DNA of 63,452 nt, counting the filler, from an uncultured Methanosarcinales archaeon (GTDB taxonomy: Archaea; Nanobdellota; Nanobdellia; Woesearchaeales; B54-G15): NCBI GenBank assembly GCA_964519225.1. It is 3 parts of 3 records of this genome, joined end to end, with 100 filler letters (N's around TTAATTAATTAA, not from the genome) between each part and the next. Parts side by side here need not be neighbours in the genome. Positions count along the whole stretch, not along the records: positions 1 to 25,902 come from CAZFJK010000012.1; 2 more parts are not named here. The stretch is one strand, 5' to 3'. The notes beneath the pieces were generated by a model. That model was not told the origin of the DNA, did no database searches, and saw only the letters and a program-made list of their open reading frames with translations. Of this stretch, positions 1-26,159 are shown piece by piece (positions within the stretch are counted from its first letter, which is position 1; every line of letters starts with the position of its first letter). The position numbers and the translations under genes were made by a program.

Positions 1-376
1 AAAGTAGGATTGTTGAAAGCGAATCAAAGAGGATTTGATGTTCTTGCCATTTTCTTAAGATCTCTTTTTGGAGTTCTGTTATTGTGATTGATATTTCATT
101 AAATGCGAGAGGACTGCTAACGCGTTTTATATTTGGTGTATCATTTGAAAAAATACCAAGATTGTGAGAATAGCAATCAATGAATTTTATTAAATCTTGT
201 TTAAGAATTATGTTTGATTTGATGAATCTTTTCATTAGTGTTTCAGGAGAATCATCGGTTAGAATGTATATTTCAGGAATGTTTTTTGCTAAAGATGTTT
301 TTGTTAATGCAAGGGCAAGTTCGCGCTTTCCTTCAAGAGGGGGACCAAGTATAAGATTCGCTACGGGCATTTTCAT
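1..376 (-). CDS. KaiC/RAD55-like RecA-fold ATPase, partial (runs off window start; not in ORF track)
   Basis: My translation: MKMPVANLILGPPLEGKRELALAL...IKFIDCYS...ILFDSLSTILL. Variant Walker A (GPPLEGKR), FIDCYS and Walker B DSLS typical of archaeal KaiC-like proteins. ATGA overlap with the stop of 373-1440. Confidence 0.75.
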   Translation of the reverse strand, partial: MKMPVANLILGPPLEGKRELALALTKTSLAKNIPEIYILTDDSPETLMKRFIKSNIILKQDLIKFIDCYSHNLGIFSNDTPNIKRVSSPLAFNEISITITELQKEILRKWQEHQILFDSLSTILL

Positions 377-1440
377 GGATTTTTAAGGGCCCTTAATATA
401 TTCCTGGGCAGAAGTTTTTTCACTTGAGGTATTTTCTTGATTAAGCTCTGTACGTCTTTTCTCATCAGTATTGCTGCAAGCTTGCCATATTTACCCCGTA
501 GTGTTTTTAATAAGGTATTCAGAAGTGCATCCCTTAATTTTATTTCTTTGCTCATTCTTCTTAAAGCATTAGAAAGTTCCTCGAATTCGTTTGTTGTAGT
601 GTGTGGTAAAGCGATATTGAAGTTCCCTTGCTTGAGTTTATTGAGCGCCGACGTTAAACGCTTTAATGGGGTAGTAAGCATTTTTGCTATGATTATTGAC
701 GTTGTGATTGCTGCTATTAAAGTTGTAATGAATATTATTACTAAAACTGTGCTGAGCTCAGCAAAGGTTTGATCCATTATATCCATAAGACTGTTAAGTT
801 TTGCTTGTGAATCGTTTTCGATTTGATTTATTTGCTGATAGAATTCATCAACATATGCTGTAGCTGCAACATTCATTCGTTTTCCATCGGCTGTTGTTGC
901 GTTTATTGGAATTATGTGCATGTACTTCTCTCGCAACTTTCCAGTATTTGGCTCTTTCCAAATATAAAAGCCGTAAGACTCTGCTCCCGATAAAGACTTC
1001 GCCATTATCCGCCAAAATTCAGGAAGTTTATCAGCGAGGGAATGTAAATCAAGATCGACTATTTCTTTTTTCTTATGAAATCTGCAAATTCCTTTTGGAT
1101 ATTCTGTTAGGGCTGTATAACCTGTTTTTCCAACCGGTTGAACAGCTATCGCTTTGAAGGCGGGATCTCGTTGAAGTTCAATAAGAGTTTTATTGTGAGA
1201 TTTCATGTAAATCTCTGCCTGTTTGGCAACAGAATATGCCTTTTCGTGAACTACATCCGCTGCAACTTGCTTTAATAGTTCTTTATTGCTAGCTATTATT
1301 TTATTGATTGTTGTTTTAGAGACTTGTTGGAAATCCTTATCCATTCTGTTTAATGTTAAGTGGGAAAAGAGCATGCCTAAGAGAAGAGGTATTGTAGTTA
1401 AGCAGATAATGATGATAAACAATTTTGTCCTTAAATGCAT
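373..1440 (-). CDS. Membrane sensor: TM - extracellular Cache-like domain - TM - HAMP - short tail, no kinase or MCP domain
   Basis: Two hydrophobic helices; VGKTGYTAL...YGFYIWKEP Cache-like segment; HAMP (PLKRLTSALNKLKQGNFNIALP..NEFEELSNALRRM); only ~50 aa follow the HAMP. Confidence 0.8.
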   Translation of the reverse strand: MHLRTKLFIIIICLTTIPLLLGMLFSHLTLNRMDKDFQQVSKTTINKIIASNKELLKQVAADVVHEKAYSVAKQAEIYMKSHNKTLIELQRDPAFKAIAVQPVGKTGYTALTEYPKGICRFHKKKEIVDLDLHSLADKLPEFWRIMAKSLSGAESYGFYIWKEPNTGKLREKYMHIIPINATTADGKRMNVAATAYVDEFYQQINQIENDSQAKLNSLMDIMDQTFAELSTVLVIIFITTLIAAITTSIIIAKMLTTPLKRLTSALNKLKQGNFNIALPHTTTNEFEELSNALRRMSKEIKLRDALLNTLLKTLRGKYGKLAAILMRKDVQSLIKKIPQVKKLLPRNILRALKNP

Positions 1441-1444
1441 TCTA

Positions 1445-1810
1445 TCACCCCAAGATTTTTTTAATTTTATTTACAGCTTTTTTTAATTCAACAAGAACCA
1501 AGCCGAGATTTATTGTCGGTTTTGCCATTACAACAAGGATTGCCTGTTCGCCTGCTCCTGTTGTGACGATTTTAGCATCCTTTGCTTCAACAAGAACTAT
1601 CGAAACGCTTCCTTTTTTTAGTTCGCTAATTGCCGTTTCTGCTGCTCCCATCATTGTTGCTGACATAGCAGCAAAGGTATCAGCATCAACATCTTGAAGC
1701 ATTACTGAATCAATGAGTAAGCCATCTCTGGTTACAACTGCGGAACCTTCTATACCCCCTATTGAAGAAAGTTCTTTTAGAACAACATCTAGCTCATCCT
1801 TTTTTGGCAT
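1445..1810 (-). CDS. Roadblock/LC7 (MglB-like) protein
   Basis: GIEGSAVVTRDGLLI..FAAMSATMMGAAE..NLGLV signature; 121 aa. Confidence 0.92.
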   Translation of the reverse strand: MPKKDELDVVLKELSSIGGIEGSAVVTRDGLLIDSVMLQDVDADTFAAMSATMMGAAETAISELKKGSVSIVLVEAKDAKIVTTGAGEQAILVVMAKPTINLGLVLVELKKAVNKIKKILG

Positions 1811-3014
1811 TTTTTAAACCTCCTTCGATGAAGTTTTTAAATAAGGATTCGAATACGAGCTGAATATCTTCCTTGTTTAATTTGGCTGGTTGGTTTGGTT
1901 CTGGTTTAGAAGAAAGTCTCATTGGAATGATTGGATATTCTTTTGGAAGGTTAAGCAAAGACCGTGCTTTTTCTATTGAAAGGGCATTTGGAGATTCGAT
2001 TTTATTGAGAACTACAACACAGGGAAGCAATTCGAACTTTGTTTTTTCAAGCATCTTTCTTGCTCTTGGAAATGAATCAGGATTTGTAGCGTCAACGATA
2101 AGTATGACGCCAAGAGATTCGTTGGCGAGTAACTCAAGAATGGGGTCAAATCTTTCTTGTCCAGGCGTGCCAAAGAGATCTATTGAGATTCCGTCATATT
2201 CAACATGTCCGTGATCAAGTGCTATTGTTGTTCCCAGCCGATCAACTGAAACTGGATTAATTGAAGCTGAATGAACGAAACTGCTTTTTCCTGCGTTGAA
2301 GGGTCCTGTTACAAGAATTTTTGGAATGAAAACCTTTATTCCGCCAGGCTTAACCACAGTAAATGGTATATAGGTTTGAGGCAGTTTTTCAACCCAATCA
2401 GCTTTTGTAACTGTAAAAAAATCTCTGAGGATTACTTTTTCTTCGAACGTTTTTATTTCTAATACGGCGTTTGATAATGTTTTTAGTTGTGAAATGATTT
2501 CCTCCTCATATGCCCATTTTACAAAAAAAGGGATTAAGTTCCATTTCTTTTTTGACGCCTCCTGCTGAAAAAATTTGAATAAATCGATAAATTTTTCATC
2601 GGATTCGAGCATATCACAGAACAAAGAAAGCGAGTCTATTGCGAGTATGCCCTCTTCTTCTGTCTCTTTTAGCTTGTTTTTTAACTGATCTATTAGTGTT
2701 TTTATAATATTTTTTGGACTAACATATTCATTGGACGTTCCGATCAGAATCGAATAAATATCGACGAAGAAAAGATTTTTATTTAAGAAAGGAAGTAAAT
2801 CCCAACCATTTCTTTTACATAGCTCTATTATTGCTTCGGATCGTTTATTGTTTGTTATGTAGATAACTGGTCTATTTTCTTTCAGCCTTGTAAAGATCGC
2901 TTGATGGAGGAACTCTATACTTTTTGCACCTGGATCAGAAAGTATAAGCATGCTTTTGCCCTGCGGAATGCCTCTTCTGAGAATATCATCTAATTTTGTT
3001 ATTCCTGTTTTCAT
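1794..3014 (-). CDS. Fusion of a degenerate KaiC/RAD55 domain and an MglA/conservon-type small GTPase
   Basis: N-term MKTGITKLDDILRRGIPQG with broken Walker A (SDPGAKS) and DSLS; C-term G1 GPFNAGKSS, G2 GTTIALDHG, G3 FGTPGQERF, G4 NKIE. Confidence 0.88.
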   Translation of the reverse strand: MKTGITKLDDILRRGIPQGKSMLILSDPGAKSIEFLHQAIFTRLKENRPVIYITNNKRSEAIIELCKRNGWDLLPFLNKNLFFVDIYSILIGTSNEYVSPKNIIKTLIDQLKNKLKETEEEGILAIDSLSLFCDMLESDEKFIDLFKFFQQEASKKKWNLIPFFVKWAYEEEIISQLKTLSNAVLEIKTFEEKVILRDFFTVTKADWVEKLPQTYIPFTVVKPGGIKVFIPKILVTGPFNAGKSSFVHSASINPVSVDRLGTTIALDHGHVEYDGISIDLFGTPGQERFDPILELLANESLGVILIVDATNPDSFPRARKMLEKTKFELLPCVVVLNKIESPNALSIEKARSLLNLPKEYPIIPMRLSSKPEPNQPAKLNKEDIQLVFESLFKNFIEGGLKNAKKG

Positions 3015-3097
3015 TTGTGCAAATTAAACTCTTCAAAAATATAAGACTAATTTTACTCTGAAAAGAAAACAAAATTTTCTCCCTAGATTCAGGAGAA

Positions 3098-3886
3098 TCA
3101 ATCTTTTAATTGTATGTGTTTAGCTTTAGCGAATTCAAATTGAAATATTTTGTTGATAAGTTTTGTAAATTTCTCGCTGATTATCCAAAATCCGATATCC
3201 CTACCATATAGAATCTCATCATCATCCGGAATTGGTTCTATGAACATAGTATGTTTATCGTCTATTGTGAAGATATGCTGTATAATGTTGGGATTGTGTT
3301 TAATATTGCAAAAATTAAGCGATTTTATATCTTCTGTAATACGCTTTGACACAGGTGTGAGGATATTTATTACTACGCCACGCTCTTTTGCGTCTTGAAG
3401 TTGATCTTTTTGAAATACCAGTCTCGAAAGTCCATTTTCTGTGAGATATACATTTATTCGTTTTTTTGCTTTTCTGAATAATTCCTCGATTTTTTTATTG
3501 TTGTTCGCTCGACCAGTAATCATCCATACAGCAACAGAAGGCTCGTTTGCTTCTTTTGCTTCGGTGAAAATTGGTTCGAGTTTTGATATTATTTGTTTTT
3601 CAAGATATTGGTATTTTTCTTCTATTCTTTTTCTCGTTGCTTCAAGTACTTCTCTTGGGCTCGCTGCGCGACACTTAATTGGTTTTGATGGAAGCAACAT
3701 TGCAAAACCTTTTGACGCAAGGGAATTCATTATTTCGTATACCTTGCCATAAGGAATTCCTGTGATTTCACTAAGATGTTTTGCTGTTGTCAGCCCCTCT
3801 GATACAAGAGTGAAATATACTTTAGCTTCATATGTGTTTAAGCCGAGTTCGGTCAATGCTTCAATAAATTCTCTTGGACTATGCAT
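3098..3886 (-). CDS. TrmB-family transcriptional regulator
   Basis: LGLNTYEAKVYFTL..LSEITGIPYGKVYEIMNSLASKGF wHTH plus C-terminal PLD-like effector domain. Confidence 0.9.
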   Translation of the reverse strand: MHSPREFIEALTELGLNTYEAKVYFTLVSEGLTTAKHLSEITGIPYGKVYEIMNSLASKGFAMLLPSKPIKCRAASPREVLEATRKRIEEKYQYLEKQIISKLEPIFTEAKEANEPSVAVWMITGRANNNKKIEELFRKAKKRINVYLTENGLSRLVFQKDQLQDAKERGVVINILTPVSKRITEDIKSLNFCNIKHNPNIIQHIFTIDDKHTMFIEPIPDDDEILYGRDIGFWIISEKFTKLINKIFQFEFAKAKHIQLKD

Positions 3887-3929
3887 AGATTAATCCTTGG
3901 TTAAAGAGGAAAATAACTTTTACTGGAGA

Positions 3930-4058
3930 TTTGGGATAAATTTAAAGTAAAGTTTATCCATTTTATTATAACCTTTAGCTTTTTTTGATATATTTTTTTT
4001 ATTTTTGGGATAAATTTTTTGAATAAAATTAAAAAATAATTTAATTATTTATCCCAAA
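3930..4058. promoter_or_regulatory. Divergent promoter region with three copies of TTTGGGATAAAT
   Basis: Exact 12-mer at 3930-3941 (+), 4004-4015 (+) and 4047-4058 (-); partial inverted copy at 3951-3960. Confidence 0.55.
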
Positions 4059-4059
4059 T

Positions 4060-4698
4060 ATGGAAAAGGGGTGGTGGGAAGAATATGCTAAAGTGTATGA
4101 TAGAATAATTTGTCTTAGTTCGCTTTATAATGAATTACTCGACAGGGCAAGTAATACTTTTCCACTTGAAGGGAGAATTCTTGAGGTTGGATGTGGAACA
4201 GGAAATCTGCTTTCAAGATTAAAAGACGAGAAAAGAATGCTTTATGGTATTGATTCAAGTCCGGATATGCTTAGATCGGCTAAGGAAAAAGTTCCTGGTG
4301 CTGTGTTGGTTAAAGGCGATGCTGCCAAACTTCCTTTTAAAGACGCGTTCTTTGATGGCGTTGCTTGTCTCAATGTATTGTATGTTGTGGAAAATCCACA
4401 AAAAGTAATTGGCGAGGCGCATAGAATCCTTAAAAATAGTGGAATATATGTTGTGAGCGGGCCAAAGCCGAATCAGGATTTTTCTCTGCTGGTCGATTCG
4501 CTTAGAAGGGATGTTGATGGGAAAGTAAGTGAAGATGAACTCTCTTCATTTATCGAGATTAACAAAAGATTGATTGAAAATGCACGGTTGTACGAGAATG
4601 AGGATGTTGTGGAGATGCTTGAGTCTGCTGGTTTTTTTGTTAAACTAAACTCTTCTGCTTATCTTGGTCAGGCATATTTTGTTGTAGCACAAAAATAG
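4060..4698 (+). CDS. Class I SAM-dependent methyltransferase (UbiE/Methyltransf_11-like)
   Basis: ILEVGCGTG, GIDSSPDML and GDAAKLPFKDAFFDGV motifs. Confidence 0.9.
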   Translation: MEKGWWEEYAKVYDRIICLSSLYNELLDRASNTFPLEGRILEVGCGTGNLLSRLKDEKRMLYGIDSSPDMLRSAKEKVPGAVLVKGDAAKLPFKDAFFDGVACLNVLYVVENPQKVIGEAHRILKNSGIYVVSGPKPNQDFSLLVDSLRRDVDGKVSEDELSSFIEINKRLIENARLYENEDVVEMLESAGFFVKLNSSAYLGQAYFVVAQK

Positions 4699-4719
4699 AT
4701 TTTAAAAGGGGGTGGTAAA

Positions 4720-5328
4720 ATGGTAGAGTTTAAGAATTTAGAACTGCGGGTTGCTGAAACTGATGAAGAAAAAGAAGAATGTTATCGACTAAGATATGAG
4801 GTTTTTGCTCAACACGGTTTTATAGACCCAGAGGAATATCCTGATAAATGCGTAAAGGACGAATATGATCCTATTTCAACGATTTTCTATGCAGCAAAAT
4901 ATGAGAATGGCAAAAGGGAAATCATTGGTACTATAAGAGTAACTCCGCCAAACGAAAGAGGATTTCAAATTGAAGGGCTTTTCGAAGTAAGTGAATGGAA
5001 ATTAAGATATGGTTCTGATTTATGGGAATCATCAAAAGTTGTTGTTAGAAATAGGGGTAGAGAAGGCTTTGGCGCTTTACTCGGTCTCGCTGGTGCAGTT
5101 TATAGATTTCTGAAAGAGAATGGATTGAGGGCAATTGTTTATATGACTGGAGAATGGAATGAGCGAATGTACCGGAAACTTGGTGTTGTAAGAGCATACC
5201 CTAAGGTAAAAATTCATCCAAATGGTCAGCCAACAGTAGCTTTGCTATGGGATATAAAAAATGTCCCAGAAAAATATAAGACGATTTTCGATAGAATACC
5301 AATCCAAATTCCGACTCTAGTTGGTTAA
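4720..5328 (+). CDS. GNAT acyltransferase of the LuxI / FeeM (N-acyl amino acid synthase) fold
   Basis: YRLRYEVF..GF..DEYD, IGTIRV, WESSK, RMYRKLG follow the LuxI/FeeM motif order; Shine-Dalgarno ggggtgg upstream. Confidence 0.72.
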   Translation: MVEFKNLELRVAETDEEKEECYRLRYEVFAQHGFIDPEEYPDKCVKDEYDPISTIFYAAKYENGKREIIGTIRVTPPNERGFQIEGLFEVSEWKLRYGSDLWESSKVVVRNRGREGFGALLGLAGAVYRFLKENGLRAIVYMTGEWNERMYRKLGVVRAYPKVKIHPNGQPTVALLWDIKNVPEKYKTIFDRIPIQIPTLVG

Positions 5329-5990
5329 ATGGGGTTAGTATTTGAGACTGCAAAATAAACATCTTTCAATGCTCCAAGATGTGAGAATTCATGGCAGTGT
5401 CTTTTCGGTTCTTGGGATTTGAATAATGGACGAGTGTTTAGCTCCGACGTTGGCTTTATAATAAAAGTACAAATTGGATGGCCTGCTGCTATGCATTTCG
5501 TTTCGATACATGACATTGGGATTTTAGTGATTTCCTCAACCAATGCAGCTGCTTGACCTCTGATATAGTGGTCCACAAAATTGTCTCTCTGTACACCAAA
5601 AAATTTTTTGTATTCTTGAGCTATTGCAGATTTTCCTTGTAGGATGAAAATGTTTGATTTAGTATCAGTCTTTACCCATTTAAATTTTCCTATGCCAATG
5701 AATTCAGCCCATGATGTATTAAAATGGAGTAAATTGATCTTGTCCAGTTTTTTCCCATAGCCAAATCGTCTTTCAACCAATTTGAATGCTTGCTTTGCTT
5801 GGAATTTTCCAAGATTATAAAATATGTCAATTACGGCTTGCTTTCCATATAGTTTTTCTATTGTTGCATGTTGATAAACAAAAACATAAAGTGCTGTGAT
5901 TAAACTGGGCATATTCCAAAGAAGAACTTTTCCATTCTTCCATTTAAGTGCATTGAACCTTAGGATTTTCTCGAGAATGGATCCAAACAT
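5325..5990 (-). CDS. V4R (4-vinyl reductase-like) small-ligand-binding domain protein
   Basis: GIGKF..G.SAIA.EY..VDHYIRGQAAAL..CIETKCIAAGHPICTFII, a V4R signature. Confidence 0.88.
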   Translation of the reverse strand: MFGSILEKILRFNALKWKNGKVLLWNMPSLITALYVFVYQHATIEKLYGKQAVIDIFYNLGKFQAKQAFKLVERRFGYGKKLDKINLLHFNTSWAEFIGIGKFKWVKTDTKSNIFILQGKSAIAQEYKKFFGVQRDNFVDHYIRGQAAALVEEITKIPMSCIETKCIAAGHPICTFIIKPTSELNTRPLFKSQEPKRHCHEFSHLGALKDVYFAVSNTNPI

Positions 5991-5991
5991 T

Positions 5992-6696
5992 TTATTTTAT
6001 CTTATGTACGATCAGGCCTGTTTTATTTATTTCAAGAGGATGTATATCCTCGTCATGATTAACTTCACGCATTTTTCTAACATGCAATGATCTAGAAAAT
6101 GGACCGCCTATCGACTCATAAATAAGGTGAATTATGCCATCACAAAGGAATTCAGAAACGCCATCTCGAGAAAGTTGTCCGTCTGTTGTTTGTGAGATTA
6201 ATATAGTAACAATTCCATTTAGATTCCTAAGCTCGGCTATAAAAGAGTAAATGAACCTTTTAATAATAAAATCATTTACTTCGGTAACATCAACATAAGT
6301 TGTAGGTGTAATGAATGTTAACGTTGATAATGAGTCTATGACAAGCCTCTTGATTTTGTTTCTTTTTACAATATCTATGATTTCATTTATTGTGTTTTTT
6401 GTAATATCGGTAGCCTTCATGCAGAAAAAAATGACTTTTCCTTCTTTTTCAAGCTTATCAAAGTCCCAATTGAATTTCCTAGCTTGACTTTTAACGTTAT
6501 TCAGGTTTTCTTCAAAACTCACGAACATGCCTTTTTCATTAAACCGTGTTGCACCGTTGTATAAAAATTGAAGTCCGAAGATCGTTTTCCCTGTGCCTGG
6601 TGTTCCACTGAGTAAGATAATTTTCCCTGGCAAGAATCCGCCATGAATCAATTCATCGAATCCTTTTATTCCTGTTTTAATTTTCTTCAAGTTCAT
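5992..6696 (-). CDS. KaiC/RAD55-family ATPase (single domain)
   Basis: TGIKGFDELIHGG, Walker A GTPGTGKT, SFEE, Walker B VIDSLS, VRKMR. Confidence 0.93.
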   Translation of the reverse strand: MNLKKIKTGIKGFDELIHGGFLPGKIILLSGTPGTGKTIFGLQFLYNGATRFNEKGMFVSFEENLNNVKSQARKFNWDFDKLEKEGKVIFFCMKATDITKNTINEIIDIVKRNKIKRLVIDSLSTLTFITPTTYVDVTEVNDFIIKRFIYSFIAELRNLNGIVTILISQTTDGQLSRDGVSEFLCDGIIHLIYESIGGPFSRSLHVRKMREVNHDEDIHPLEINKTGLIVHKIK

Positions 6697-6697
6697 T

Positions 6698-6994
6698 TTA
6701 ATATTTATTGACGGTATATATGAAGATTACTTTTGTTTTTGTTTCGATTTTTTGGCAGAGGATTTCTCCGCCAAGCCTGAGATTCTTCCTTAGTTCTTTT
6801 GGAATGAGAAAATATTTCGTTGCTGAATTTTTTCCTCTTGAAGCAATGTTTGTCTTTATCTTTGCTGTTCTTTCTGAAAAGAGATGAACATCTTCAATGT
6901 GGCCTTCAAGTTGCAGAGCTTCAGAAGGGTCGAGGCTTACTGTGAAGATGATCTTGTTGTCGTTGGTGACCTTAGAACCAAGTATTACTCCCAT
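6698..6994 (-). CDS. Small protein with a possible AbrB-like DNA-binding motif
   Basis: RGKNSATKYFLIPKELRKNL resembles the AbrB/SpoVT swapped-hairpin motif; closely coupled to the kaiC-like gene. Confidence 0.5.
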   Translation of the reverse strand: MGVILGSKVTNDNKIIFTVSLDPSEALQLEGHIEDVHLFSERTAKIKTNIASRGKNSATKYFLIPKELRKNLRLGGEILCQKIETKTKVIFIYTVNKY

Positions 6995-6996
6995 TT

Positions 6997-7836
6997 TTAT
7001 CTTTTATTTTGTTTGGTGGATGTTTTTCTTCTATTTAAAGTTTTAGGATAAATTTGTGCTGATTTTTGCCTCTTTTTTAAATAAATTTTCAATGCAATCA
7101 ACATTCCCAAAAGGATAAAAAAGATGATGGCTGAAGTATTGATTTTGAGTTGTGTTTCGGCTTGTGTCCTTTGATTTATTTTCCCTCTGGATTTGGGTTT
7201 TATCAAGTCATGTCGTATTAATCCTTCTTGTGAATATACAAATATCTCAAAAGTACAATTTTCGCATGGTGGAAGTATATAAGTATAAGAACGTTGGCTA
7301 AGTGGAGGAAGAGCGATTGACGCTATTTTTTGAAGCTTGCTGCTAAGTTCGTTGATCTTTGAAAAAATATTTACTGTGTTATTTATGTTTCCTGCATTTT
7401 CAAGTGTTAAATAAAGAGTTGTGTTTTTTCCCTCGATTAATTCGAGTTTTTTAACAATAACGTGACTTATAATATCATTAGACAAAGTGATTATTAAAGG
7501 AAGAGTTTGTGCTACAACTGAAGCTGTTGTTATCAGATCTGCTGGCTTTCTTTCGATGGTTAAAAAGCCATGGTAAGAACCCGGTTGTGCTTGTTCTGGT
7601 GGTTTGATGATCAAAACCAATCTTTCAGGCGTTTGATTTATTGATATCCAATTGCTTATTTCGCCTATTGTGTAATAGTTGATATAGTCTGAATCGTTTA
7701 TTGGGAGACTATATTCGGCGTATCCGCCCGGCCTCACATTGCTAATCAGGATTTCGTTGTTTATTGTTGTCCCAAATGCAGGCAAGGTTTGCAAAAAAGC
7801 GAGAAAAATTGCTATAAAAAACAACTTTTTTACCAT
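6997..7836 (-). CDS. Secreted, C-terminally membrane-anchored beta-rich protein
   Basis: Signal peptide (MVKKLFFIAIFLAFLQTLPAFG), Ig/CARDB-like ENAGN strand, C-terminal TM helix and basic tail. Confidence 0.65.
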   Translation of the reverse strand: MVKKLFFIAIFLAFLQTLPAFGTTINNEILISNVRPGGYAEYSLPINDSDYINYYTIGEISNWISINQTPERLVLIIKPPEQAQPGSYHGFLTIERKPADLITTASVVAQTLPLIITLSNDIISHVIVKKLELIEGKNTTLYLTLENAGNINNTVNIFSKINELSSKLQKIASIALPPLSQRSYTYILPPCENCTFEIFVYSQEGLIRHDLIKPKSRGKINQRTQAETQLKINTSAIIFFILLGMLIALKIYLKKRQKSAQIYPKTLNRRKTSTKQNKR

Positions 7837-8057
7837 TCGCTAAACTAACTCATGAGAGAATTTTTCTTTTTTCTTTTCTCCCAACGGAGAAAAAACAAAA
7901 TTAACTTATCCAAGAAAAGAAAATCTTTTCTGAAGTTTTCATAAAGAAAGATTATGTTAAAGCTTGGAATTGGTTTGGTTGGTGGAGCTTTTGTTGCTTT
8001 TTTTATTTTAATTAAATTACTTAAAATGAGGCTTAGAAAACGAATATTAAGATTAGA

Positions 8058-8621
8058 ATGAAAAGCAGAGATTTGTTTCTAGCTTTCATATTTGGCATTG
8101 TTGGGATGTTTATTGCCGTTTTCTTTTTAATAAAAAATAAAGAGCTATTTATGCTTGTTCCTACCGCTGTTGCGCGAGGAGAAATCTGGAGATTTTTAAG
8201 CTACCATTTAATACATAAAAATCTGAGCCATTTAATTGAAAATTGCATTGGATTTTTCTTTGTTGGATTTATTGCATACGAACTTAAAGTAGGATTGAAG
8301 AGATATATTTTTGCGTATATAATTGCAGCTATTTTTGCTGTGCTGCCTATTTGGATTGTGTTTCGGTTCATAGCCTTTGGTGCTTCTGCTGCTGTACTTG
8401 CTTTATTTTCTTTTAGTTCGATAAACCTCACGCGATTGGGAGTTAGTTTGGTTGTGGTTTATTTTCTGTTATTAGGACTGATTGTAATTGGAAGTTCTGG
8501 AGAATATTCTTTTCTTGGCCATCTTACTGGATTTGGCTTTGGATTTTTGATCTATGGAATTTTCAGCTTGTTCGATAAAAGAAAACAAAAGATTTTGAGG
8601 AGGTGTAATGAAAATGTATAA
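8058..8621 (+). CDS. Rhomboid-family intramembrane serine protease
   Basis: GEIWRFLSYHLIHKNLSHLIEN, catalytic GAS, GHLTGFGFG. Confidence 0.85.
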   Translation: MKSRDLFLAFIFGIVGMFIAVFFLIKNKELFMLVPTAVARGEIWRFLSYHLIHKNLSHLIENCIGFFFVGFIAYELKVGLKRYIFAYIIAAIFAVLPIWIVFRFIAFGASAAVLALFSFSSINLTRLGVSLVVVYFLLLGLIVIGSSGEYSFLGHLTGFGFGFLIYGIFSLFDKRKQKILRRCNENV

Positions 8622-9339
8622 GAGGATACCAACAGGAATCCCTGGTTTAGATAAGATGCTGTTCGGTGGGTTTTTAGAAGGAAGGAATATATTGATTTCA
8701 GGACCATGCGGTGCAGGAAAAACAATTTTTGGTATTCAGTTTCTTTACAATGGTGCAGTAAAATACAACGAACCTGGGTTGTACGTTACGCTTGAAGAGA
8801 CTAAGCAGAAGATTTTTGATGATTGTGCTGCTCTTGGATTTGATCTTCCTACGTTAGAAAGGCAAAACAAATTCCACATCATTGGCGGACCCATAGCAAA
8901 AATAAAGTATTATATGGATAAAGTTGATGCAAAGGCCAGACACATAATAAATGAGATTGGTGAAGTTGTAAAGGATAAGAATGTTAAGAGAGTTGTAATC
9001 GATTCATTGAATCTTTTAACTATCTTAGCAAGCAGCGACGAGGAGAGAAGAAGGATAATTGCTTCTTTGTGCAATATGCTTTCTTCGCTTGGATGCACAT
9101 CATTAATTATAAGCGAAACCGAAGAAGGCAGCATGAAATTGAGCAGGTATGGAATGGAAGAATTTGTTGTTGATGGCGTTGTTGTTTTGTATCTGGTAAG
9201 GCAAGGAAGTAGATTTATTTCAGGTATTGCAATAAGAAAAATGAGAGGAACTGATCATGATAGGGAGATTAGGGTTTATAAGATAGGAAAAGGAGGAATT
9301 GTTGTGTATCCGAATGAAACAATGTTTGGAGAAGTTTAG
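8608..9339 (+). CDS. KaiC/RAD55-family ATPase (single domain)
   Basis: TGIPGLDKMLFGG, GPCGAGKT, TLEE, VVIDSL, IRKMRGT. Confidence 0.93.
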   Translation: MKMYKRIPTGIPGLDKMLFGGFLEGRNILISGPCGAGKTIFGIQFLYNGAVKYNEPGLYVTLEETKQKIFDDCAALGFDLPTLERQNKFHIIGGPIAKIKYYMDKVDAKARHIINEIGEVVKDKNVKRVVIDSLNLLTILASSDEERRRIIASLCNMLSSLGCTSLIISETEEGSMKLSRYGMEEFVVDGVVVLYLVRQGSRFISGIAIRKMRGTDHDREIRVYKIGKGGIVVYPNETMFGEV

Positions 9340-9375
9340 AAAGTTTTTTATAATTCTTTTAGTAAGCTTGGGTGA

Positions 9376-9744
9376 ATGCTTGGCAGAAAAAAAGAGGTTT
9401 TAGTCGATGTGGATAAGGATTTGAAAGCGATTAATGAATTTTTATCGCGGAGTTCTGGCAAGGTTGAACTGCTTAAAAAACTTGCTAAGGATGTTAGTTT
9501 TCTTAGACATCAGGAGAGGATGCTTGCAGAAAAGAATGTTGAAAAAGCTAAGGAAAAAGTCTTTGAAGAAATGATTTTTGCTTTACTCGATTTACTAAAG
9601 CAATATAGTTTTTTTCAACTTGATGTTGACATAAGCGGTGAAAGACTAAAAAGGATTGGGAAGGTTTACTATCAAAGGTTGAAAAATGAATTTCCTGATT
9701 TGTTTGGAAAACTTAAAAAAGAAGACAGGATGTTCTTTGAATAA
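9376..9744 (+). CDS. Hypothetical helical protein
   Basis: 122-aa ORF; stop overlaps the thrS start (TAATG). Confidence 0.6.
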   Translation: MLGRKKEVLVDVDKDLKAINEFLSRSSGKVELLKKLAKDVSFLRHQERMLAEKNVEKAKEKVFEEMIFALLDLLKQYSFFQLDVDISGERLKRIGKVYYQRLKNEFPDLFGKLKKEDRMFFE

Positions 9745-11663
9745 TGACAACCATAATAATTACTTTGCCTGACGGTAGCAAGTTTAAAGCTCGGAAGGGT
9801 ATTAAACCGATTGATATAGCAAAGAAATTGCTCGGTAGCGCTTTTGCTAAAAAAGCCCTTGTTGCTTTAGTGAACGGTAAGCTCTGGGATTTGGATCGAG
9901 CGATAGAAGAAGATGCTAAAGTAAAAATTTTAACTTACGATGATGAAGAGGCAATTGCTGTTCTAAGACATAGTTGTGCACACGTTCTTGCCCAGGCTGT
10001 TAAAAGGCTTTATCTTGATGTAAAGCTTGGTATTGGGCCTGCTATAGAAAACGGGTTTTATTATGATTTTGATAAAAAAGAAGCATTTACTCCTGCTGAT
10101 TTAAAGCAGATAGAGGCGGAGATGAAGAAGATAATTAAAGCGAATTATAGATTTGAAAGAAAAGAGATCAGTAAAAAAGAGGCAAGGAAATTGTTTGCTG
10201 ATGAGCCTTATAAGCTCGAATTGATTGATGAGATGGAAGAGCCGATAAGTGTTTATAAAGATGGTGAGTTTATTGATTTATGCAAAGGACCTCATATTCA
10301 GAGCACAGGGATGATTAAAGCATTTAAGTTAATGAAAACAGCTGGAGCTTATTGGAAAGGAAAAGCTGAAAATCCTCAGCTGCAAAGGATTTATGGAGTA
10401 GCATTTAAAGATGAAAAAGAATTGAAGAAATATCTTTCTCTGCTTGAGGAAGCTGAAAAAAGAGATCATAGAAAACTTGGCAAAGAGCTTGATCTGTTTT
10501 CTATACATCCCGAAGGTCCTGGATTTCCTTTCTTTCATCCAAAGGGAATGGTTGTGATTAATGAAATTCTGAAATATTGGCGTGAAGAGCATGAAAAAGA
10601 AGGCTACAGCGAGGTTAAAACTCCGATTATTTTGAGCAAAACGCTCTGGGAGCAGTCAGGACATTGGGAGCATTATAAAGAAAACATGTATTTTACAAAA
10701 ATTGATGGTAGAGATTTTGCAATAAAGCCAATGAACTGTCCCGGAAGTATTTTGATTTACAAGGAAAGGGTGCATAGCTACAGAGAACTTCCTTTGAGAT
10801 GGGCTGAGCTCGGTTTAGTGCACAGGCATGAGTTAAGCGGAGTTCTTTCTGGTCTGTTTAGGGTAAGGGCCTTTACGCAGGATGATGCACATATCTATTG
10901 TATGCCTGAACAGATTGAGGAAGAGGTTATTGGGATAATTAAGCTTACTGAAAGGATTTACAAGACATTTGGATTCAAGTATGAGGTTGAATTGAGCACA
11001 AAGCCAGAGAAAGCAATGGGAACTGCTGAGCAATGGCATGAAGCAGAAACTGCTTTAAAGAATGCATTAGAAAAATGCAGGATTAAGTATAAGGTTAATC
11101 CAGGTGAAGGTGCTTTCTACGGGCCAAAGATAGATTTTCATGTAAAGGATGCTTTAGGAAGAAAATGGCAGTGCGGCACCATACAGCTTGATTTTCAAAT
11201 GCCTGAAAGATTTGATCTTAGCTATGAAGGAAAAGACGGGAGAAGACACAGGGTTGTTATGCTTCACAGAACTGTTCTCGGCAGCTTAGAAAGATTTCTC
11301 GGTGTTTTGCTTGAACATTTTGCTGGAAAGCTTCCTCTCTGGATTGCTCCTGAACAGATCAGGGTAATAACTGTTTCTGATAAAGTAAGAAATTATGCCA
11401 AAAAAGTTTATAAAGAACTGGAAAAGCAAGGATTTAGGGTTATGCTGGATGATAGGGCATCTACTGTTCAGTACAAGATCAGGGATGCGCAGCTGCAAAA
11501 GGTTCCTTATATGGTTGTGATTGGAGAGAAAGAAGAAAAAGCAAAGAAGATTGCTGTGAGGACTCGGGAGAATAAAGTTAAGTTTGGTGTTAAATTAGAG
11601 AAGTTTATTGATGCGTTGAAAAAAGAGATTAAGGAAAGGAAAGTTGAGTTGGAAGCGATTTAG
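9744..11663 (+). CDS. thrS: Threonine--tRNA ligase, bacterial type
   Basis: TGS domain, HSCAHVLAQAV editing motif, KPMNCPG, FTQDDAH, GAFYGPKID, anticodon-binding domain. Confidence 0.97.
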   Translation: MTTIIITLPDGSKFKARKGIKPIDIAKKLLGSAFAKKALVALVNGKLWDLDRAIEEDAKVKILTYDDEEAIAVLRHSCAHVLAQAVKRLYLDVKLGIGPAIENGFYYDFDKKEAFTPADLKQIEAEMKKIIKANYRFERKEISKKEARKLFADEPYKLELIDEMEEPISVYKDGEFIDLCKGPHIQSTGMIKAFKLMKTAGAYWKGKAENPQLQRIYGVAFKDEKELKKYLSLLEEAEKRDHRKLGKELDLFSIHPEGPGFPFFHPKGMVVINEILKYWREEHEKEGYSEVKTPIILSKTLWEQSGHWEHYKENMYFTKIDGRDFAIKPMNCPGSILIYKERVHSYRELPLRWAELGLVHRHELSGVLSGLFRVRAFTQDDAHIYCMPEQIEEEVIGIIKLTERIYKTFGFKYEVELSTKPEKAMGTAEQWHEAETALKNALEKCRIKYKVNPGEGAFYGPKIDFHVKDALGRKWQCGTIQLDFQMPERFDLSYEGKDGRRHRVVMLHRTVLGSLERFLGVLLEHFAGKLPLWIAPEQIRVITVSDKVRNYAKKVYKELEKQGFRVMLDDRASTVQYKIRDAQLQKVPYMVVIGEKEEKAKKIAVRTRENKVKFGVKLEKFIDALKKEIKERKVELEAI

Positions 11664-11842: not shown

Positions 11843-12140
11843 TTATCATAATTTCTATGATAAGGTCGGGAAAATGCTTAGATCAAGCTATTTAATTAAA
11901 TTTAATATTCTAATATGAATTATTTTTCTTCGAAAGAAAAATAAAAAAGAAAAAAATTTTTAAAATAAAATATTCCTTTTGGGATAAATTTTTGAAGTTG
12001 TCTAGTGCCTAAATAGTAATAGTGAACGACTTTCCGATATTATTTTCTCTCTATCTAAGTGATGACTTCCTGATGCATTGAAATTTTAACTTTTCATGCT
12101 GGTTTCCACAGGAAATGGTGGTTTGGATTGTTTGTATTTA

Positions 12141-12280: not shown

Positions 12281-14623
12281 ATGGGAAAATTTAAGAAAAT
12301 TGTTGCCTTGGCCGCAGGCCTTGGTATGTTGGGAGCAACATTAAGTGGAGCATTGGCTGCACCGTGGACTTTGGACAACTATCCAAAGGCGCTTGGATCA
12401 CCAGTTACCATTGTTTTTGGCAAAGACGCTGATGTCAGCGATGTTGTTGGTGCGACTGAATTAGCAAGCGCATTGAAATATGAAGAAGAAACAACCACAA
12501 CAACCGCAGCCACAGTAAGCGAAGGAGTTTTGATAAAGTCTGCAGGAGACGAGTTGAATTATGAAGAGTGTTTTTCAAATATAACTTCCACACTTGATAG
12601 CAGTGACTTGGATATCTTAGCGGATCAAACATACGATGATAATGAAGGTGATAATGAAAATTCAGTAACTTATACTCAAGAGATCTCATTTACGTATGGT
12701 ACAGATGGCACAAACTGTCTTAAATTTACTATTGATGAAAATGAAGATAATGAACCTGCAGGCACATATATAGAAATTACTGATGATGATGACACTTATA
12801 CATATACTTTAGAGTTTGATGACTCGGTTGCTTACACAAACACATCGACTGGAGTAGACAATGATCTTGAAGATACCGAATTGACAATAATGGGTAACAC
12901 ATATACAATAGTTGATGCTGGCGTCAGTGGCGGAGAGCTCAATTATCTAAAATTATTTGGCGGAGTAATGGAACTAACAATCAAGGAGGGAGAAACAAAA
13001 ACTATTCAAATTGATGACACAAGCTATGAAATAACTTGTGATAATGTTTGGACAAGCGGTAACGACGAATACACTTTAATTAGCGTAAATGGAGAACAAT
13101 CAAGCAAATTAAGTGAAGGACAAAGTGATGAAGTTAGCGGACTGAGAATTGCTGTCAAGACAGTTGTTGATGAAGAAGCTGCTGAATCTGAAGACTGGGT
13201 TCAGTTATATGTTGGTGCAAATGTTGTTGAGTTAACAGATGGTCAAGAAGTTAAAGTAAACGGCGAAGAGCTCGATGGTTCTGAAGTAACTTTTGATGTA
13301 ACTAGTGATGAATGGGATGGTTTCTCAATATCGTATAAACCAGAAGATGACTTGTGGCTTGCAGTTGGCGAAGAATGGACGGATCCTGTGTTTGGTAGAT
13401 TCAAATTTGTGTTCGCTGGATTAGAAAAAACAACAGAAACAATAAAAGCAACCACATCCGGAGATGATGGAACTCTAACGCTTACAAACAATGCAGGAGA
13501 TACATTAGAAATTCCGTTCATAGGAAATGGAACAGTAGTGTATCCTGGTGATGATTTGGTTGAGAGTGATGTGTACACGAAACAAGGAGATGCTACATCA
13601 CAGATTGCGGGGGGCGGAAACTTGTTAATTAAAAACGAAAATTATTGTAATGCAACAGACAAGATTGAAGATTGTGAAGGAATACTCTTGCTTGTTGCTA
13701 GCAGTAATGAAGTTAGAATCATAGAAATAACCGATATTGATACCGACAATAACCAAACGGACTTAAAAGACTTGACAACAGGTACAACGTGGACTAATGA
13801 GGACTATACTCCTGGACAAGGAACGGTTATAGATCTATGGGGTAGTGCTACAATAAATATAACGATTGATCATGACAATAAGTTAGTAAAAATCAATGAT
13901 GGGTTGTTAGGTAGCGATTATATAGAAACGCCTCTTGAAGGAAGAGTATATCTCAGCTTTGATAAACCAAACTCACAGGTTACGGTGAAAAATGAAGATA
14001 ATGAAACGTTGTTTGTATTCAATTTCACGACCAGCGATGAAGACACGGTGTTAGATGATATCAATGTTTACAATGAAATGATGGACCAAGAAGAAGATTC
14101 TGACATTAAAGTAGGATTAGATGCTGCAGATTACGGAGCAATAATTACTTGGGACAGTGAGGATAAAGATGACCTAACAATAGAATATCCAGAAGAAGAG
14201 GTATATGCAGATGTGTATGTGACTCCGATTAGTGCGACATTGGTTGCAGGTACAAATGTTGAAGTTAAAACAGTAGATGCTGTATCAAAGCTTGATAGTG
14301 AAGTTGGAAATATCGCTGGTGTTACGACAGATGGCGTGATTTTGATCGGAGGTCCTTGTGTCAACACACTAACAGCAGAAGCCATGGGCAAGACATATCC
14401 GGCATGTGGCGCTGACTCAGGAATTCCAGAAAACAAAGGTATCATTAAAGCATATGAGGTTGGTGACAAGAAAGTACTGCTTGTTGCTGGATGGAGTGCT
14501 GACGACACAAGGAGAGCATGCCTAGCATTGAAATACCCAACCTACAAAGATTGGGGATTGACTGGAACAGAAGCAGAAGTTACTGGAACGAGCTTAAGCG
14601 ACATCAGCGTAACAACTGTCTAA
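12281..14623 (+). CDS. Major S-layer protein
   Basis: Signal peptide, acidic/Thr-rich with N-x-S/T sequons, N-term IVFGKDADVSDVVGA and C-term ILIGGPCVN..LLVAGWSADDT S-layer domains. Confidence 0.88.
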   Translation: MGKFKKIVALAAGLGMLGATLSGALAAPWTLDNYPKALGSPVTIVFGKDADVSDVVGATELASALKYEEETTTTTAATVSEGVLIKSAGDELNYEECFSNITSTLDSSDLDILADQTYDDNEGDNENSVTYTQEISFTYGTDGTNCLKFTIDENEDNEPAGTYIEITDDDDTYTYTLEFDDSVAYTNTSTGVDNDLEDTELTIMGNTYTIVDAGVSGGELNYLKLFGGVMELTIKEGETKTIQIDDTSYEITCDNVWTSGNDEYTLISVNGEQSSKLSEGQSDEVSGLRIAVKTVVDEEAAESEDWVQLYVGANVVELTDGQEVKVNGEELDGSEVTFDVTSDEWDGFSISYKPEDDLWLAVGEEWTDPVFGRFKFVFAGLEKTTETIKATTSGDDGTLTLTNNAGDTLEIPFIGNGTVVYPGDDLVESDVYTKQGDATSQIAGGGNLLIKNENYCNATDKIEDCEGILLLVASSNEVRIIEITDIDTDNNQTDLKDLTTGTTWTNEDYTPGQGTVIDLWGSATINITIDHDNKLVKINDGLLGSDYIETPLEGRVYLSFDKPNSQVTVKNEDNETLFVFNFTTSDEDTVLDDINVYNEMMDQEEDSDIKVGLDAADYGAIITWDSEDKDDLTIEYPEEEVYADVYVTPISATLVAGTNVEVKTVDAVSKLDSEVGNIAGVTTDGVILIGGPCVNTLTAEAMGKTYPACGADSGIPENKGIIKAYEVGDKKVLLVAGWSADDTRRACLALKYPTYKDWGLTGTEAEVTGTSLSDISVTTV

Positions 14624-19678: not shown

Positions 19679-20062
19679 ATGCGAAAAGAGATTAAGGTTT
19701 GGTTGGACCAGGCTGTGCAAGATTTTGATGCAGCGTTATATAATTTTGACGGTAGGAGATATTACGTTGCTGCTTTTTTATGTCAGCAGGCTGTTGAAAA
19801 GGCATTAAAGGCTTTATTTTTAAAAAAAAGAAAAGGGATTTTTCCTCAATCGCATTCTCTTATATATTTGGGTAAGGAAGTGAAAGTTCCGAAAGAATTT
19901 CTTGGATTTTTGAGAGAGCTGACTCCTAAATTTATTGATACAAGATATCCTGATGCTGCGTTAGGGATTCCTGCTGAAATTTACGGCGAAGAAAATGTTG
20001 CTGAAATAATTGAACGAACAAAGAAGATCTTAAAATGGATCAAAAACGAACTAGAAAAGTAA
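19679..20062 (+). CDS. HEPN domain protein (HEPN-MNT toxin-antitoxin)
   Basis: AAFLCQQAVEKALKAL..HSL..TRYPD. Confidence 0.9.
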   Translation: MRKEIKVWLDQAVQDFDAALYNFDGRRYYVAAFLCQQAVEKALKALFLKKRKGIFPQSHSLIYLGKEVKVPKEFLGFLRELTPKFIDTRYPDAALGIPAEIYGEENVAEIIERTKKILKWIKNELEK

Positions 20063-20367
20063 GAAGTTGTTTGGAAAAAGGCTTCTTGAGGTTTGTAGAA
20101 ACCATAAAGAAAAAGTTTGATGCAAAGGTTTTGCTTTTTGGAAGCAGAGCAAAGGGAGAATGTTTTAAGTTCAGTGATTATGATGTAATTGTGATCTCGC
20201 ACAAGTTTGAAGGAGTTCAGTGGCATGAGAGAATAAGCGACATCGTTAAGTATTGGCGTCTAAACAAAGATCTCCACGTTCTGCCCTATACTGAAAAAGA
20301 ATTCGAGAAGAAAAAGAAGATGCGAACGATTGTGCAGGTTGCAGTAAAAGAAGGTTTTTATCTGTGA
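20035..20367 (+). CDS. Minimal nucleotidyltransferase (MNT antitoxin)
   Basis: LLFGSRAKG..SDYDVIVIS..YTEKEF. Confidence 0.88.
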   Translation: MDQKRTRKVRSCLEKGFLRFVETIKKKFDAKVLLFGSRAKGECFKFSDYDVIVISHKFEGVQWHERISDIVKYWRLNKDLHVLPYTEKEFEKKKKMRTIVQVAVKEGFYL

Positions 20368-26002: not shown

Positions 26003-26003
26003 A

Positions 26004-26077
26004 CGGGCCCGCCCGGATTTGAACCGGGGTCTGGTGGTCCGAAGCCACCCGTCCTATCCAGGCTAGACTACGGGCCC
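26004..26077 (-). tRNA. tRNA-Arg(TCG)
   Basis: GGGCCCG..GGTGG-CTTCGGA-CCACC..TTCAAAT..CGGGCCC on the minus strand. Confidence 0.95.
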
Positions 26078-26159
26078 ACGAAAGAACAAACGTTTCTAAC
26101 TTATATATGTTGCGTTCAAAATATAAAAAACAAGAAAGAAAAACAAAGAATAAAAGCAC

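Follow-up and report, generated by a model that had tools for sequence, protein, structure and literature searches.

Small Ras-like GTPases encoded beside Roadblock proteins are known from the MglA/MglB system of Myxococcus and Thermus, in which the Roadblock protein acts as a GTPase-activating protein (GAP) or guanine nucleotide exchange factor (GEF), and from the conservons (CvnA-D, Mfp) of Actinomycetota, in which a membrane sensor, a Roadblock protein and a small GTPase share one operon with variable accessory genes. For archaea, Makarova, Galperin and Koonin are said to have proposed in 2017 that KaiC-like ATPases, including inactivated 'iKaiC' domains, act as signalling hubs. Archaea, and the DPANN archaea (Diapherotrites, Parvarchaeota, Aenigmarchaeota, Nanoarchaeota and Nanohaloarchaeota) above all, have few or no two-component systems, which poses the question of how they sense their surroundings or hosts. 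Table 1 of PMC5847659 enters no two-component systems in its rows for Nanoarchaeota and Nanohaloarchaeota. Here we describe a 63-kb window, the whole stretch of DNA analysed (63,452 nucleotides; assembly GCA_964519225.1), whose positions 1-9339 carry a cluster of 13 densely spaced genes with likenesses to each of these systems. In this Woesearchaeota-type archaeon the region is probably a conserved sensory cluster that uses no kinase and is centred on a small-GTPase switch. Its kinase-free sensory module of G-protein type is well supported, and the cluster offers a concrete, testable and widely conserved candidate for a route from receptor to GTPase whose parts are defined.

A sequence-only reading of the window had pointed to 13 contiguous genes, many of them tightly spaced or overlapping, and to signalling without kinases in a DPANN-type archaeon. 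Both held. The open reading frame (ORF) calls gave the 13 genes in four transcription units, A to D, and Pfam and NCBIfam scans of each ORF recovered the HAMP, Roadblock, KaiC-GTPase, V4R, TrmB, methyltransferase, LuxI/FeeM, KaiC and rhomboid domains that had been named. As predicted, HisKA, HATPase_c and Response_reg were found in none of the 14 proteins of 1-9744, which sets the cluster apart from a two-component system. KaiC-superfamily genes account for 4 of the 13 genes versus 0 of the 57 ORFs scanned in the other 54 kb (Fisher p = 7.8e-4), and KaiC, Roadblock, HAMP and V4R genes together for 7 of 13 versus 0 of 57 (p = 1.4e-6). The parts are of known kinds, namely GTPase-Roadblock pairs, KaiC hubs, HAMP receptors and LuxI/FeeM enzymes.

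The KaiC-GTPase fusion and its conserved partners

Unit A, on the minus strand, begins with a TrmB-family regulator (3886-3098; TrmB PF01978, 3.5e-19; Regulator_TrmB PF11495, 2.2e-5) and continues with a 406-residue fusion of an inactivated KaiC-like domain to a Ras-superfamily small GTPase (3014-1794; KaiC 4.3e-19; Arf/Ras/MMR_HSR1 1e-8), a Roadblock/LC7 (MglB-like) protein (1810-1445; Robl_LC7 PF03259, 1.5e-17) and a HAMP membrane receptor that has no kinase or methyl-accepting chemotaxis protein (MCP) output (1440-373; HAMP 1.4e-9). It ends with a degenerate KaiC-like gene (376-2) that is open at its 3' end and leaves the window at the left edge; its first 125 residues are present, and its relatives have about 210. 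A gap of 83 bp separates TrmB from the fusion, the fusion and Roadblock genes overlap by 17 bp, a 4-bp gap precedes the receptor, and the receptor and KaiC-like genes overlap by 4 bp. Its scores, far below the NCBIfam equivalog cut-offs, rule out the TrmB-family protein as an orthologue of TrmB, TrmBL1 or TrmBL2.

We found 1386 relatives of the fusion at E<=1e-3, and 327 of 500 matched genome stretches encode one; all locus counts below refer to the best 80 of these 327 loci (cited, where needed, by labels such as L001, and single homologues by labels such as P0001). In the window protein, residues 1-229 match KaiC and residues 232 to about 400 match Arf/Ras/small_GTP. The GTPase motifs comprise a G1 reading GPFNAGKSS, conserved Thr262/Thr263, a G3 reading DLFGTPGQE, and the NK of G4. 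G1 (GxxxxGK[ST]) is kept in 80 of 80 fusions and G[TS]PGQ in 79. The KaiC domain has lost its P-loop: GK[ST] occurs in 0 of 80 N-terminal domains at the position aligned to GTPGTGKT and GPCGAGKT of the stand-alone KaiC proteins of the window, and a profile alignment with PH0284 agrees. A raw regular expression returned a Walker A in 22 of the 80 N-terminal domains, and we rejected these matches as an upstream GGIPxGK[ST] turn rather than the P-loop. Judged by its motifs, the dead domain fits the notion of iKaiC, the term for inactivated KaiC domains in PMC5847659. An N-terminal KaiC-like domain precedes the GTPase in all 80 loci and in the 120 listed proteins, and a single-domain GTPase was found in none of them. 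In databases the fusion goes only under the names 'GTP-binding protein', 'ATPase domain-containing protein' or 'DUF7090 family protein'.

An AlphaFold2 (AF2) model of the fusion had a mean confidence (pLDDT) of 85.6. Its best whole-chain fold matches were KaiC hexamer subunits and double-domain KaiC, all of them loose (TM-score 0.44-0.52, rmsd 11-12 A), and naming the GTPase subfamily from this search was abandoned because matches near a TM-score of 0.5 are too loose. In a profile search, the GTPase domain matched Rab/Arf best (1e-11), and MglA was not among the 60 matches listed. Likeness to MglA/MglB lies elsewhere: the small GTPase gene adjoins a Roadblock/LC7 gene, and the G3 reads GTPGQ without Asp at the canonical position, which we take to be typical of MglA. 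The Roadblock protein also matches MglB structures, weakly (5e-3), after archaeal Roadblock (4e-16) and CvnB5 (5e-7). Unlike in MglA/MglB, the GTPase here is fused behind an inactivated KaiC domain, and a second degenerate KaiC-like gene is nearby. Wuichet and Sogaard-Andersen described archaeal Group 4 MglA proteins without conserved neighbours (PMC4316618), and neither 'KaiC' nor 'fused' occurs in the accessible text of that paper.

A survey of gene neighbourhoods had been suggested as a check, and in the 80 loci the receptor, Roadblock, KaiC-GTPase, KaiC-like and TrmB genes proved to be a module kept in distant genomes. Apart from one protein at 94% identity (P0001), all fusion relatives are at most 47% identical, and those with names come from Nanoarchaeota, Woesearchaeota and Altiarchaeota. 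A FastTree phylogeny gave Woese/Nano (16 rows), Altiarchaeota-type (20), Parvarchaeota/Nanoarchaeota-type (8), Archaeoglobi-type (9) and Methanosarcinales/ANME-2/Methanoperedens (24) clades, with one row each for Thermoplasmata and Thermoproteota. A Roadblock gene is present in 75 of the 80 loci, directly downstream of the fusion in 62, and in four of the five loci that have none the contig stops less than 700 bp past the fusion. The short KaiC-like gene is present in 55 loci, directly upstream of the fusion in 39 and together with Roadblock in 53; it closes the operon in Woese/Nano rows and in the window likewise. These three genes, encoding a short degenerate KaiC-like protein, the inactivated-KaiC/Ras-like-GTPase fusion and a Roadblock protein, form a core triad that recurs in Woese/Nano, Altiarchaeota, Parvarchaeota-type, Methanosarcinales/ANME-2/Methanoperedens, Archaeoglobi, Thermoplasmata and Thermoproteota records. 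Genetics is conceivable in the cultivable Methanosarcinales/Methanoperedens relatives that have the fusion.

TrmB homologues lie upstream of the fusion, on the same strand, in 11 loci, all of them among the 16 Woese/Nano rows. The operon end is visible in seven relatives: all seven end with the short KaiC-like gene or, in L039, with a stand-alone receiver after it, and none with a kinase. HisKA/HATPase_c was likewise found in none of 141 neighbour proteins of related loci. Two further features occur beside the fusion in relatives. Membrane ORFs of 103-130 residues, with two or three predicted transmembrane (TM) segments and no family match, lie between fusion and Roadblock in L003, L004, L001, L022 and others, not in the window, and a gene related to AIR synthase (AIRS/AIRS_C) lies directly upstream of the fusion in 16 loci of Altiarchaeota type (e.g. 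L044, 8896-9855).

The short KaiC-like ORF (2-376) itself has no Pfam match; searched against the 80 loci, it matched 61 ORFs in 58 of them. Its full-length homologues (phmmer E to 1e-32) match KaiC PF06745 at 2.8e-16, as well as DUF7504 and DUF7090, and PF06745 was thus found directly in three cluster proteins and in the fourth through these homologues. Its P-loop reads GPPLEGKR, so that no Ser/Thr follows GK; across the family the residue after GK is E, D or K in 30 members and S or T in 6, and the motif is missing in 16. The two stand-alone single-domain KaiC-like ATPases score 6.6e-58 and 9.3e-69 against the KaiC Pfam family, and both retain their motifs. The protein encoded at 5992-6696 (minus strand) has an intact Walker A (GTPGTGKT), FEEN and Walker B (VIDSLS), and that at 8608-9339 (plus strand) reads GPCGAGKT, LEET and VIDSLN, with Walker A/B and catalytic glutamates intact. 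Expanded single-domain KaiC paralogues, some inactivated, near sensor and output domains are a likeness to the archaeal hubs treated in PMC5847659.

Unit C, on the minus strand, encodes a surface protein (p279; 7836-6997), a 98-residue protein (p98; 6994-6698), the first stand-alone KaiC ATPase (6696-5992) and a 221-residue V4R-domain protein (5990-5325; V4R 1e-7), with gaps of 1-2 bp. The sequence-only reading had expected V4R to co-occur with GTPase and Roadblock genes, and members of the same full-length V4R family (170-240 residues) do adjoin the fusion or Roadblock gene in 11 of 80 loci from three fusion clades. These are 8 of 9 Archaeoglobi-type rows (Archaeoglobi and unclassified-archaeon records), Thermoplasmata L075, Woesearchaeota L021 and, by a weak match, one further locus, L041. 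A hidden Markov model (HMM) of the Roadblock-adjacent V4R proteins, built with the window protein excluded, matched residues 13-182 of the window V4R protein at 1.9e-16. V4R, Roadblock and small GTPase are core folds of TRAPP and have been discussed for Asgard archaea (PMC10933270). Side by side in these 11 loci, the three genes resemble TRAPP/Ragulator (TRAPPC3/V4R fold, longin/Roadblock and GTPase) and link, at operon level, the folds behind these eukaryotic regulators. The likeness is one of genes alone; it differs in that no longin domain is present and that the V4R gene of the window, 2 kb distant, shares its operon with a KaiC ATPase.

Unit D, on the plus strand, pairs a rhomboid intramembrane protease (8058-8621; Rhomboid 3.8e-12) with the second KaiC ATPase (8608-9339), which overlaps it by 14 bp and is translationally coupled to it. 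Six of the 80 loci have a rhomboid homologue; all six belong to the Woese/Nano clade, and the gene is never more than 4 kb from the fusion. In 5 of 5 informative loci a KaiC gene of the 8608-9339 type follows it directly or nearly directly downstream. G108-A109-S110, H155, R45, H58 and N62 (GxS, WR and HxxxN motifs) are invariant in the six sequences, and by these residues the rhomboid is catalytically intact. The rhomboids also share a basic cytoplasmic C-terminal tail, K-R/K-x-x-x-L-R, with L180 and R181 invariant, which could be a contact for the co-translated KaiC protein.

The p279 protein is predicted to have an N-terminal signal/TM segment, an extracellular part of about 200 residues, a C-terminal TM segment and a basic tail. 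In L016, L024, L025 and L049 the fusion operon opens with a gene for a similar protein; as these loci form one subclade, they amount to one or two independent observations. V4R, the rhomboid-KaiC pair and the surface protein all turn up again next to the module in relatives, which makes most of the island a conserved neighbourhood. The lineage-restricted p98 protein has two homologues, beside KaiC in L004 and upstream of TrmB in L021, and matched only unnamed Nanobdellota clusters in the Atlas. Its earlier label 'AbrB-like' was not borne out: there was no Pfam match at E<=1, an AF2 model reached a pLDDT of 54.7, and hhalign gave a probability of 0.1% against the MazE/SpoVT/AbrB-domain protein of L021.

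The receptor, its tail and the sensor slot

The receptor comprises TM1 (about residues 2-30), an extracellular, putatively sCache-like domain of about 195 residues, TM2 (about 224-256), a HAMP domain (251-300) and a tail (301-355; positions 376-540, minus strand). The sequence-only reading had called it Cache-like. HAMP was confirmed, and the Cache assignment comes by transfer: the receptor has no direct Pfam match to Cache, and 3 of 24 homologues scanned (P0173, P0183 and P0194) match sCache_2, Cache_3-Cache_2 or dCache_2 in the same region. Among these 24 homologues, HisKA/HATPase_c was found in 7, MCPsignal in 2 and PAS in 1, and nothing was recognised after HAMP in the others. Since homologues of the same layout carry HisKA/HATPase_c or MCPsignal, we regard the HAMP-only receptor as a kinase-less variant of the ordinary Cache/HAMP sensor. 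It shares the TM/sCache-like/TM/HAMP layout with HAMP sensor kinases and chemoreceptors and differs from them in its output module, in whose place stands a tail of about 50 residues.

In the Woese/Nano clade, the position between Roadblock and the short KaiC-like gene is a sensor slot, filled by HAMP receptors or PAS proteins and occupied in 13 of 16 rows; the contigs of the remaining three stop less than 700 bp past the fusion. Membrane HAMP receptors fill it in L001 (two), L005, L008, L009, L022 and L039; Pfam recognises an extracellular input domain, dCache_1, only in those of L008 and L009. A gene for a solute-binding protein adjoins the slot receptor in L001, L005 and L022. Cytoplasmic PAS proteins take the slot in L003 (two), L004, L016, L021, L024, L025 and L027.

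The extracellular parts of the slot receptors cannot be aligned (19-23% overall identity), and HAMP and the tail of about 50 residues are common to all. Eleven tail positions are invariant (R303, L306, L311, G316, K317, G319, I324, R327, L333, P338 and P345). An HMM of the tail, run against the 80 loci, matched only seven receptor ORFs in six loci, all receptors of GTPase/Roadblock operons, and among the 150 best homologues of the window receptor the tail is present on two (P0125 and P0158). The alignment thus suggests that a tail specific to GTPase/Roadblock operons has replaced the receptor kinase, and we consider it a candidate transmitter or docking motif, usable as a search handle and as bait in pull-downs.

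Like the conservons, the cluster joins a membrane sensor to a Roadblock protein and a small GTPase within a single operon whose accessory genes vary, and a conservon protein, CvnB5, is a solved relative of its Roadblock protein. In CvnA the C terminus is extended by a conserved segment that bears an LPxR motif (PMC4316618), and the receptor tail also ends in a conserved LP (LLPRN; ILPKS in relatives), a likeness by motif only. Conservons differ in that the sensor here has no HisKA/HATPase_c, KaiC-like parts are added and the host is an archaeon. CvnC (DUF742) had no Pfam match in the cluster or among the neighbour proteins of related loci. In the literature searched, which excludes the 2017 KaiC-hub paper, we found no description of an iKaiC-GTPase fusion as centre of the triad, of the sensor slot or of the kinase-replacing tail.

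Signal route, output and competing readings

By analogy with MglA/MglB and the conservons (PMC4316618, PMC13343842 and PMC13621833, each as far as its text was available), we propose that a ligand bound at the sCache-like domain would be signalled through HAMP to the tail, which would dock on the Roadblock dimer or on the KaiC-like scaffold. The Roadblock protein may then serve, like MglB and CvnB, as a GAP/GEF platform that sets the nucleotide state of the GTPase, on a platform that the short KaiC-like protein would form together with the dead KaiC domain. Accessory input and output branches would be supplied by the two active KaiC ATPases with their partners (V4R; rhomboid with surface protein), and V4R may contribute an input for ligands inside the cell or act as a regulatory partner of TRAPP type (PMC10933270). 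The output would most likely be transcription through TrmB, of its own operon and of the divergent methyltransferase/acyltransferase unit, cell-surface or pilus functions, or both.

That the switch mainly steers cell-surface structures (type IV pili (T4P) or adhesion, the surface protein and rhomboid processing), and so host attachment of an episymbiotic DPANN cell, is possible and in our view rather doubtful. In L001, whose fusion is the closest among the loci (46%), a T2SSE gene and two T2SSF/TadC genes stand directly upstream on the same strand (6115-9861), and in L014 and L029 T4P genes are no more than 8 kb away. The p279-like protein that opens the fusion operon in four loci and the intact rhomboid paired with KaiC point the same way. 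Earlier papers also place KaiC-family ATPases and Roadblock (arCOG02603) at archaeal T4P loci (PMC4858521), have MglA/MglB/SofG act on pilus-based motility (PMC4316618) and count KaiC among the most abundant proteins of Nanoarchaeum equitans (PMC3149612). However, the T4P linkage is confined to 3 of 80 loci, pilus genes were not found among the 57 other ORFs of the window, and the euryarchaeal triads sit among housekeeping genes (S19e, YhbY and a dsDNA-binding protein).

Transcription through TrmB, the other output of the favoured sensory reading, is suggested by the 173-bp control region (3887-4059) from which unit A and the plus-strand unit B diverge. Unit B encodes a class I S-adenosylmethionine-dependent methyltransferase (4060-4698; Methyltransf_11 1.6e-23) and, after 21 bp, a 202-residue LuxI/FeeM-superfamily acyltransferase of the GCN5-related N-acetyltransferase (GNAT) fold (4720-5328; FeeM 2e-12). 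The 10-mer TGGGATAAAT occurs in the control region at 3932-3941 and 4006-4015 on the plus strand and at 4047-4056 on the minus strand, three of the five exact copies in the whole window (clustering p~7e-5). The same core motif, GGGATAAA, stands upstream of TrmB three times in L003 and twice in L021, against a background of 0.083 per kb that was taken over whole loci rather than over the AT-rich intergenic DNA alone. Opposite TrmB in L003 stands an operon for a GNAT protein, a B12-radical-SAM protein and a methyltransferase homologue (32% identity, 2e-30, full length). Gene order and motif together suggest that, in at least two lineages, an operon for small-molecule modification is under the control of a TrmB-type regulator. 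The two outlying copies of TGGGATAAAT, at 11980-11989 (upstream of an S-layer-like gene, 12281-14623) and 30076-30085 (at the start of an HTH-CBS gene, 30066-30620), are possible further targets of the same regulator. A single regulon over all units was rejected, as TGGGATAAAT is absent from intergenic 3015-3097 and 7837-8057.

The acyltransferase exceeds the cut-offs of FeeM (PF21926; 47.6 bits, cut-off 27) and Acetyltransf_5 (PF13444; 33.2 bits, cut-off 22.4), and its best solved relatives are the acyl-homoserine lactone synthases TofI (1e-4) and the CoA-dependent BjaI (3.5e-4). In alignment with TofI, N-terminal R, F, D, D and R and later E-S positions agree, residues that count as hallmarks. 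By these matches it is a genuine, rare member of the LuxI/FeeM superfamily, and it differs from known synthases in its archaeal host and in having no LuxR-type partner (Autoind_bind/LuxR was not found in the 14+57 window proteins). The Atlas clusters nearest to it are bacterial without exception and of FeeM/Autoind_synth type, a hint of transfer that falls short of proof. A word-index search of 5.8 billion clusters returned three relatives (P0122-P0124; four proteins with itself). A genome survey of CPR (Candidate Phyla Radiation) and DPANN lists LuxI homologues for CPR only, as far as the text at hand goes (PMC7567580). Such an enzyme, seldom found in archaea, offers a lead of its own to the small-molecule chemistry of these organisms.

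The sequence-only reading had made this enzyme the signal synthase of one quorum- or host-sensing circuit comprising all 13 genes, in which methyltransferase and acyltransferase make a signal that is sensed outside by Cache and inside by V4R and TrmB and relayed through KaiC and GTPase. We judge this unlikely. The superfamily assignment, the control region shared with the TrmB operon, the corresponding L003 operon with its three motif copies and the full-length homologues that the methyltransferase, a class I enzyme of generic type, has in 5 of 80 loci at up to 7 kb from the fusion all speak for it, and V4R and Cache are small-molecule-binding folds (PMC10933270). Against it, the acyltransferase is found in 0 of 80 loci, and the L003 GNAT protein, which we had considered as a FeeM homologue, was rejected as such (E=0.029). 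No LuxR-type or other dedicated acyl-signal receptor was found in the 14+57 window proteins, and the receptor's extracellular domain is a common one, also borne by ordinary kinases and chemoreceptors. The variety of input domains that relatives have in the sensor slot means that the pathway is not bound to a single ligand. The divergent promoter fits a regulated target equally well, and the two enzymes are probably such a lineage-specific target, less likely a signal source. The kinase-free module of that earlier proposal therefore stands, and its self-signalling quorum circuit is weakly supported, because the acyltransferase is rare, absent from the 80 loci and linked only through the shared control region with its motif.

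A bolder form would make the cluster a prokaryotic counterpart of receptor-coupled G-protein signalling, looped through a self-made N-acyl or methylated signal from the adjacent enzymes. In that loop the tailed HAMP receptor would drive the Roadblock protein (with V4R, in the manner of TRAPP/Ragulator) to act on the GTPase on its dead KaiC scaffold. We give this form a slim chance; if true, it would be the first autoinducer circuit of DPANN archaea and the first without a kinase.

It is very unlikely that the island is no unit at all and merely sets a conserved five-gene operon beside unrelated genes (methyltransferase, acyltransferase, KaiC paralogues and rhomboid) in a compact genome. Its four separate transcription units, the two intergenic regions that miss the TrmB-region motif and the low counts of acyltransferase (0), p98 (2) and methyltransferase (5) in 80 loci fit that view, but the enrichment of KaiC, Roadblock, HAMP and V4R genes runs counter to it, and V4R, the rhomboid-KaiC pair and p279 recur by the module in loci whose fusions are 40-47% identical. 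A reading as anti-virus defence island or KaiC-based timer is barely credible: KaiC-like P-loop proteins do occur in viruses and defence contexts (PMC13700489) and two KaiC paralogues are active, but PADLOC on the 14 proteins gave a generic methyltransferase-core match and marginal P-loop matches only, and, unlike in the cyanobacterial KaiABC clock, KaiC is single-domain and no KaiA or KaiB family was found (Pfam, NCBIfam).

Several points weigh against the favoured reading of a conserved sensory cluster centred on the GTPase. The 80 loci are the best of 327, and many lie on short contigs. In the tree the fusion of the window has a long branch (length 1.0; best identity 46%) and falls, with uncertain placement, next to the Woese/Nano and Altiarchaeota clades. 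Specificity for guanine is not certain: all 80 locus fusions keep the NK of G4, but the residue at the Asp position of NKxD is Asp in 57, Asn in 22 and Ser in 1, and the window protein reads NKIE. Stand-alone receivers adjoin the operon in L004 (14737-15150) and L039 (15118-15510) only, and a CheB-CheR-PAS fusion lies beside the module in L004 (4413-7622), which hints at cross-talk with phosphorelay parts. The rhomboid, p279, p98 and methyltransferase associations come from two to six loci each, several of them close relatives, and the motif background is that of whole loci. Interactions between the module proteins are predicted, by analogy with the bacterial systems, and TrmB-dependent transcription and surface/pilus functions are two candidate outputs.

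Other features of the window

The other 54 kb is of housekeeping character, with aminoacyl-tRNA synthetases, ribosomal proteins, GINS, eIF2-alpha and S-layer-like proteins. Beyond the cluster, 9744-11663 encodes a threonyl-tRNA synthetase (ThrRS) that shares 94% identity with a protein named Candidatus Woesearchaeota archaeon, in keeping with a Woesearchaeota-like organism, and about 60% with enzymes of Clostridium and Thermosediminibacter; the archaeon thus has a ThrRS of bacterial type. ThrRS is also close to the fusion in L065-type loci. A tyrosine recombinase (23281-24129, minus strand) and a winged-helix-turn-helix (wHTH) protein (24654-25202, minus strand) adjoin tRNA-Arg (26003-26078, minus strand) and possibly belong to an integrated element. 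The cumulative GC skew of the window turns at about 26 kb and again at about 50 kb. At 19679-20367, overlapping HEPN and minimal nucleotidyltransferase genes form a toxin-antitoxin-like pair, and at 52848-52964 Rfam, not ARAGORN, called a 117-nt tRNA that possibly contains an intron.

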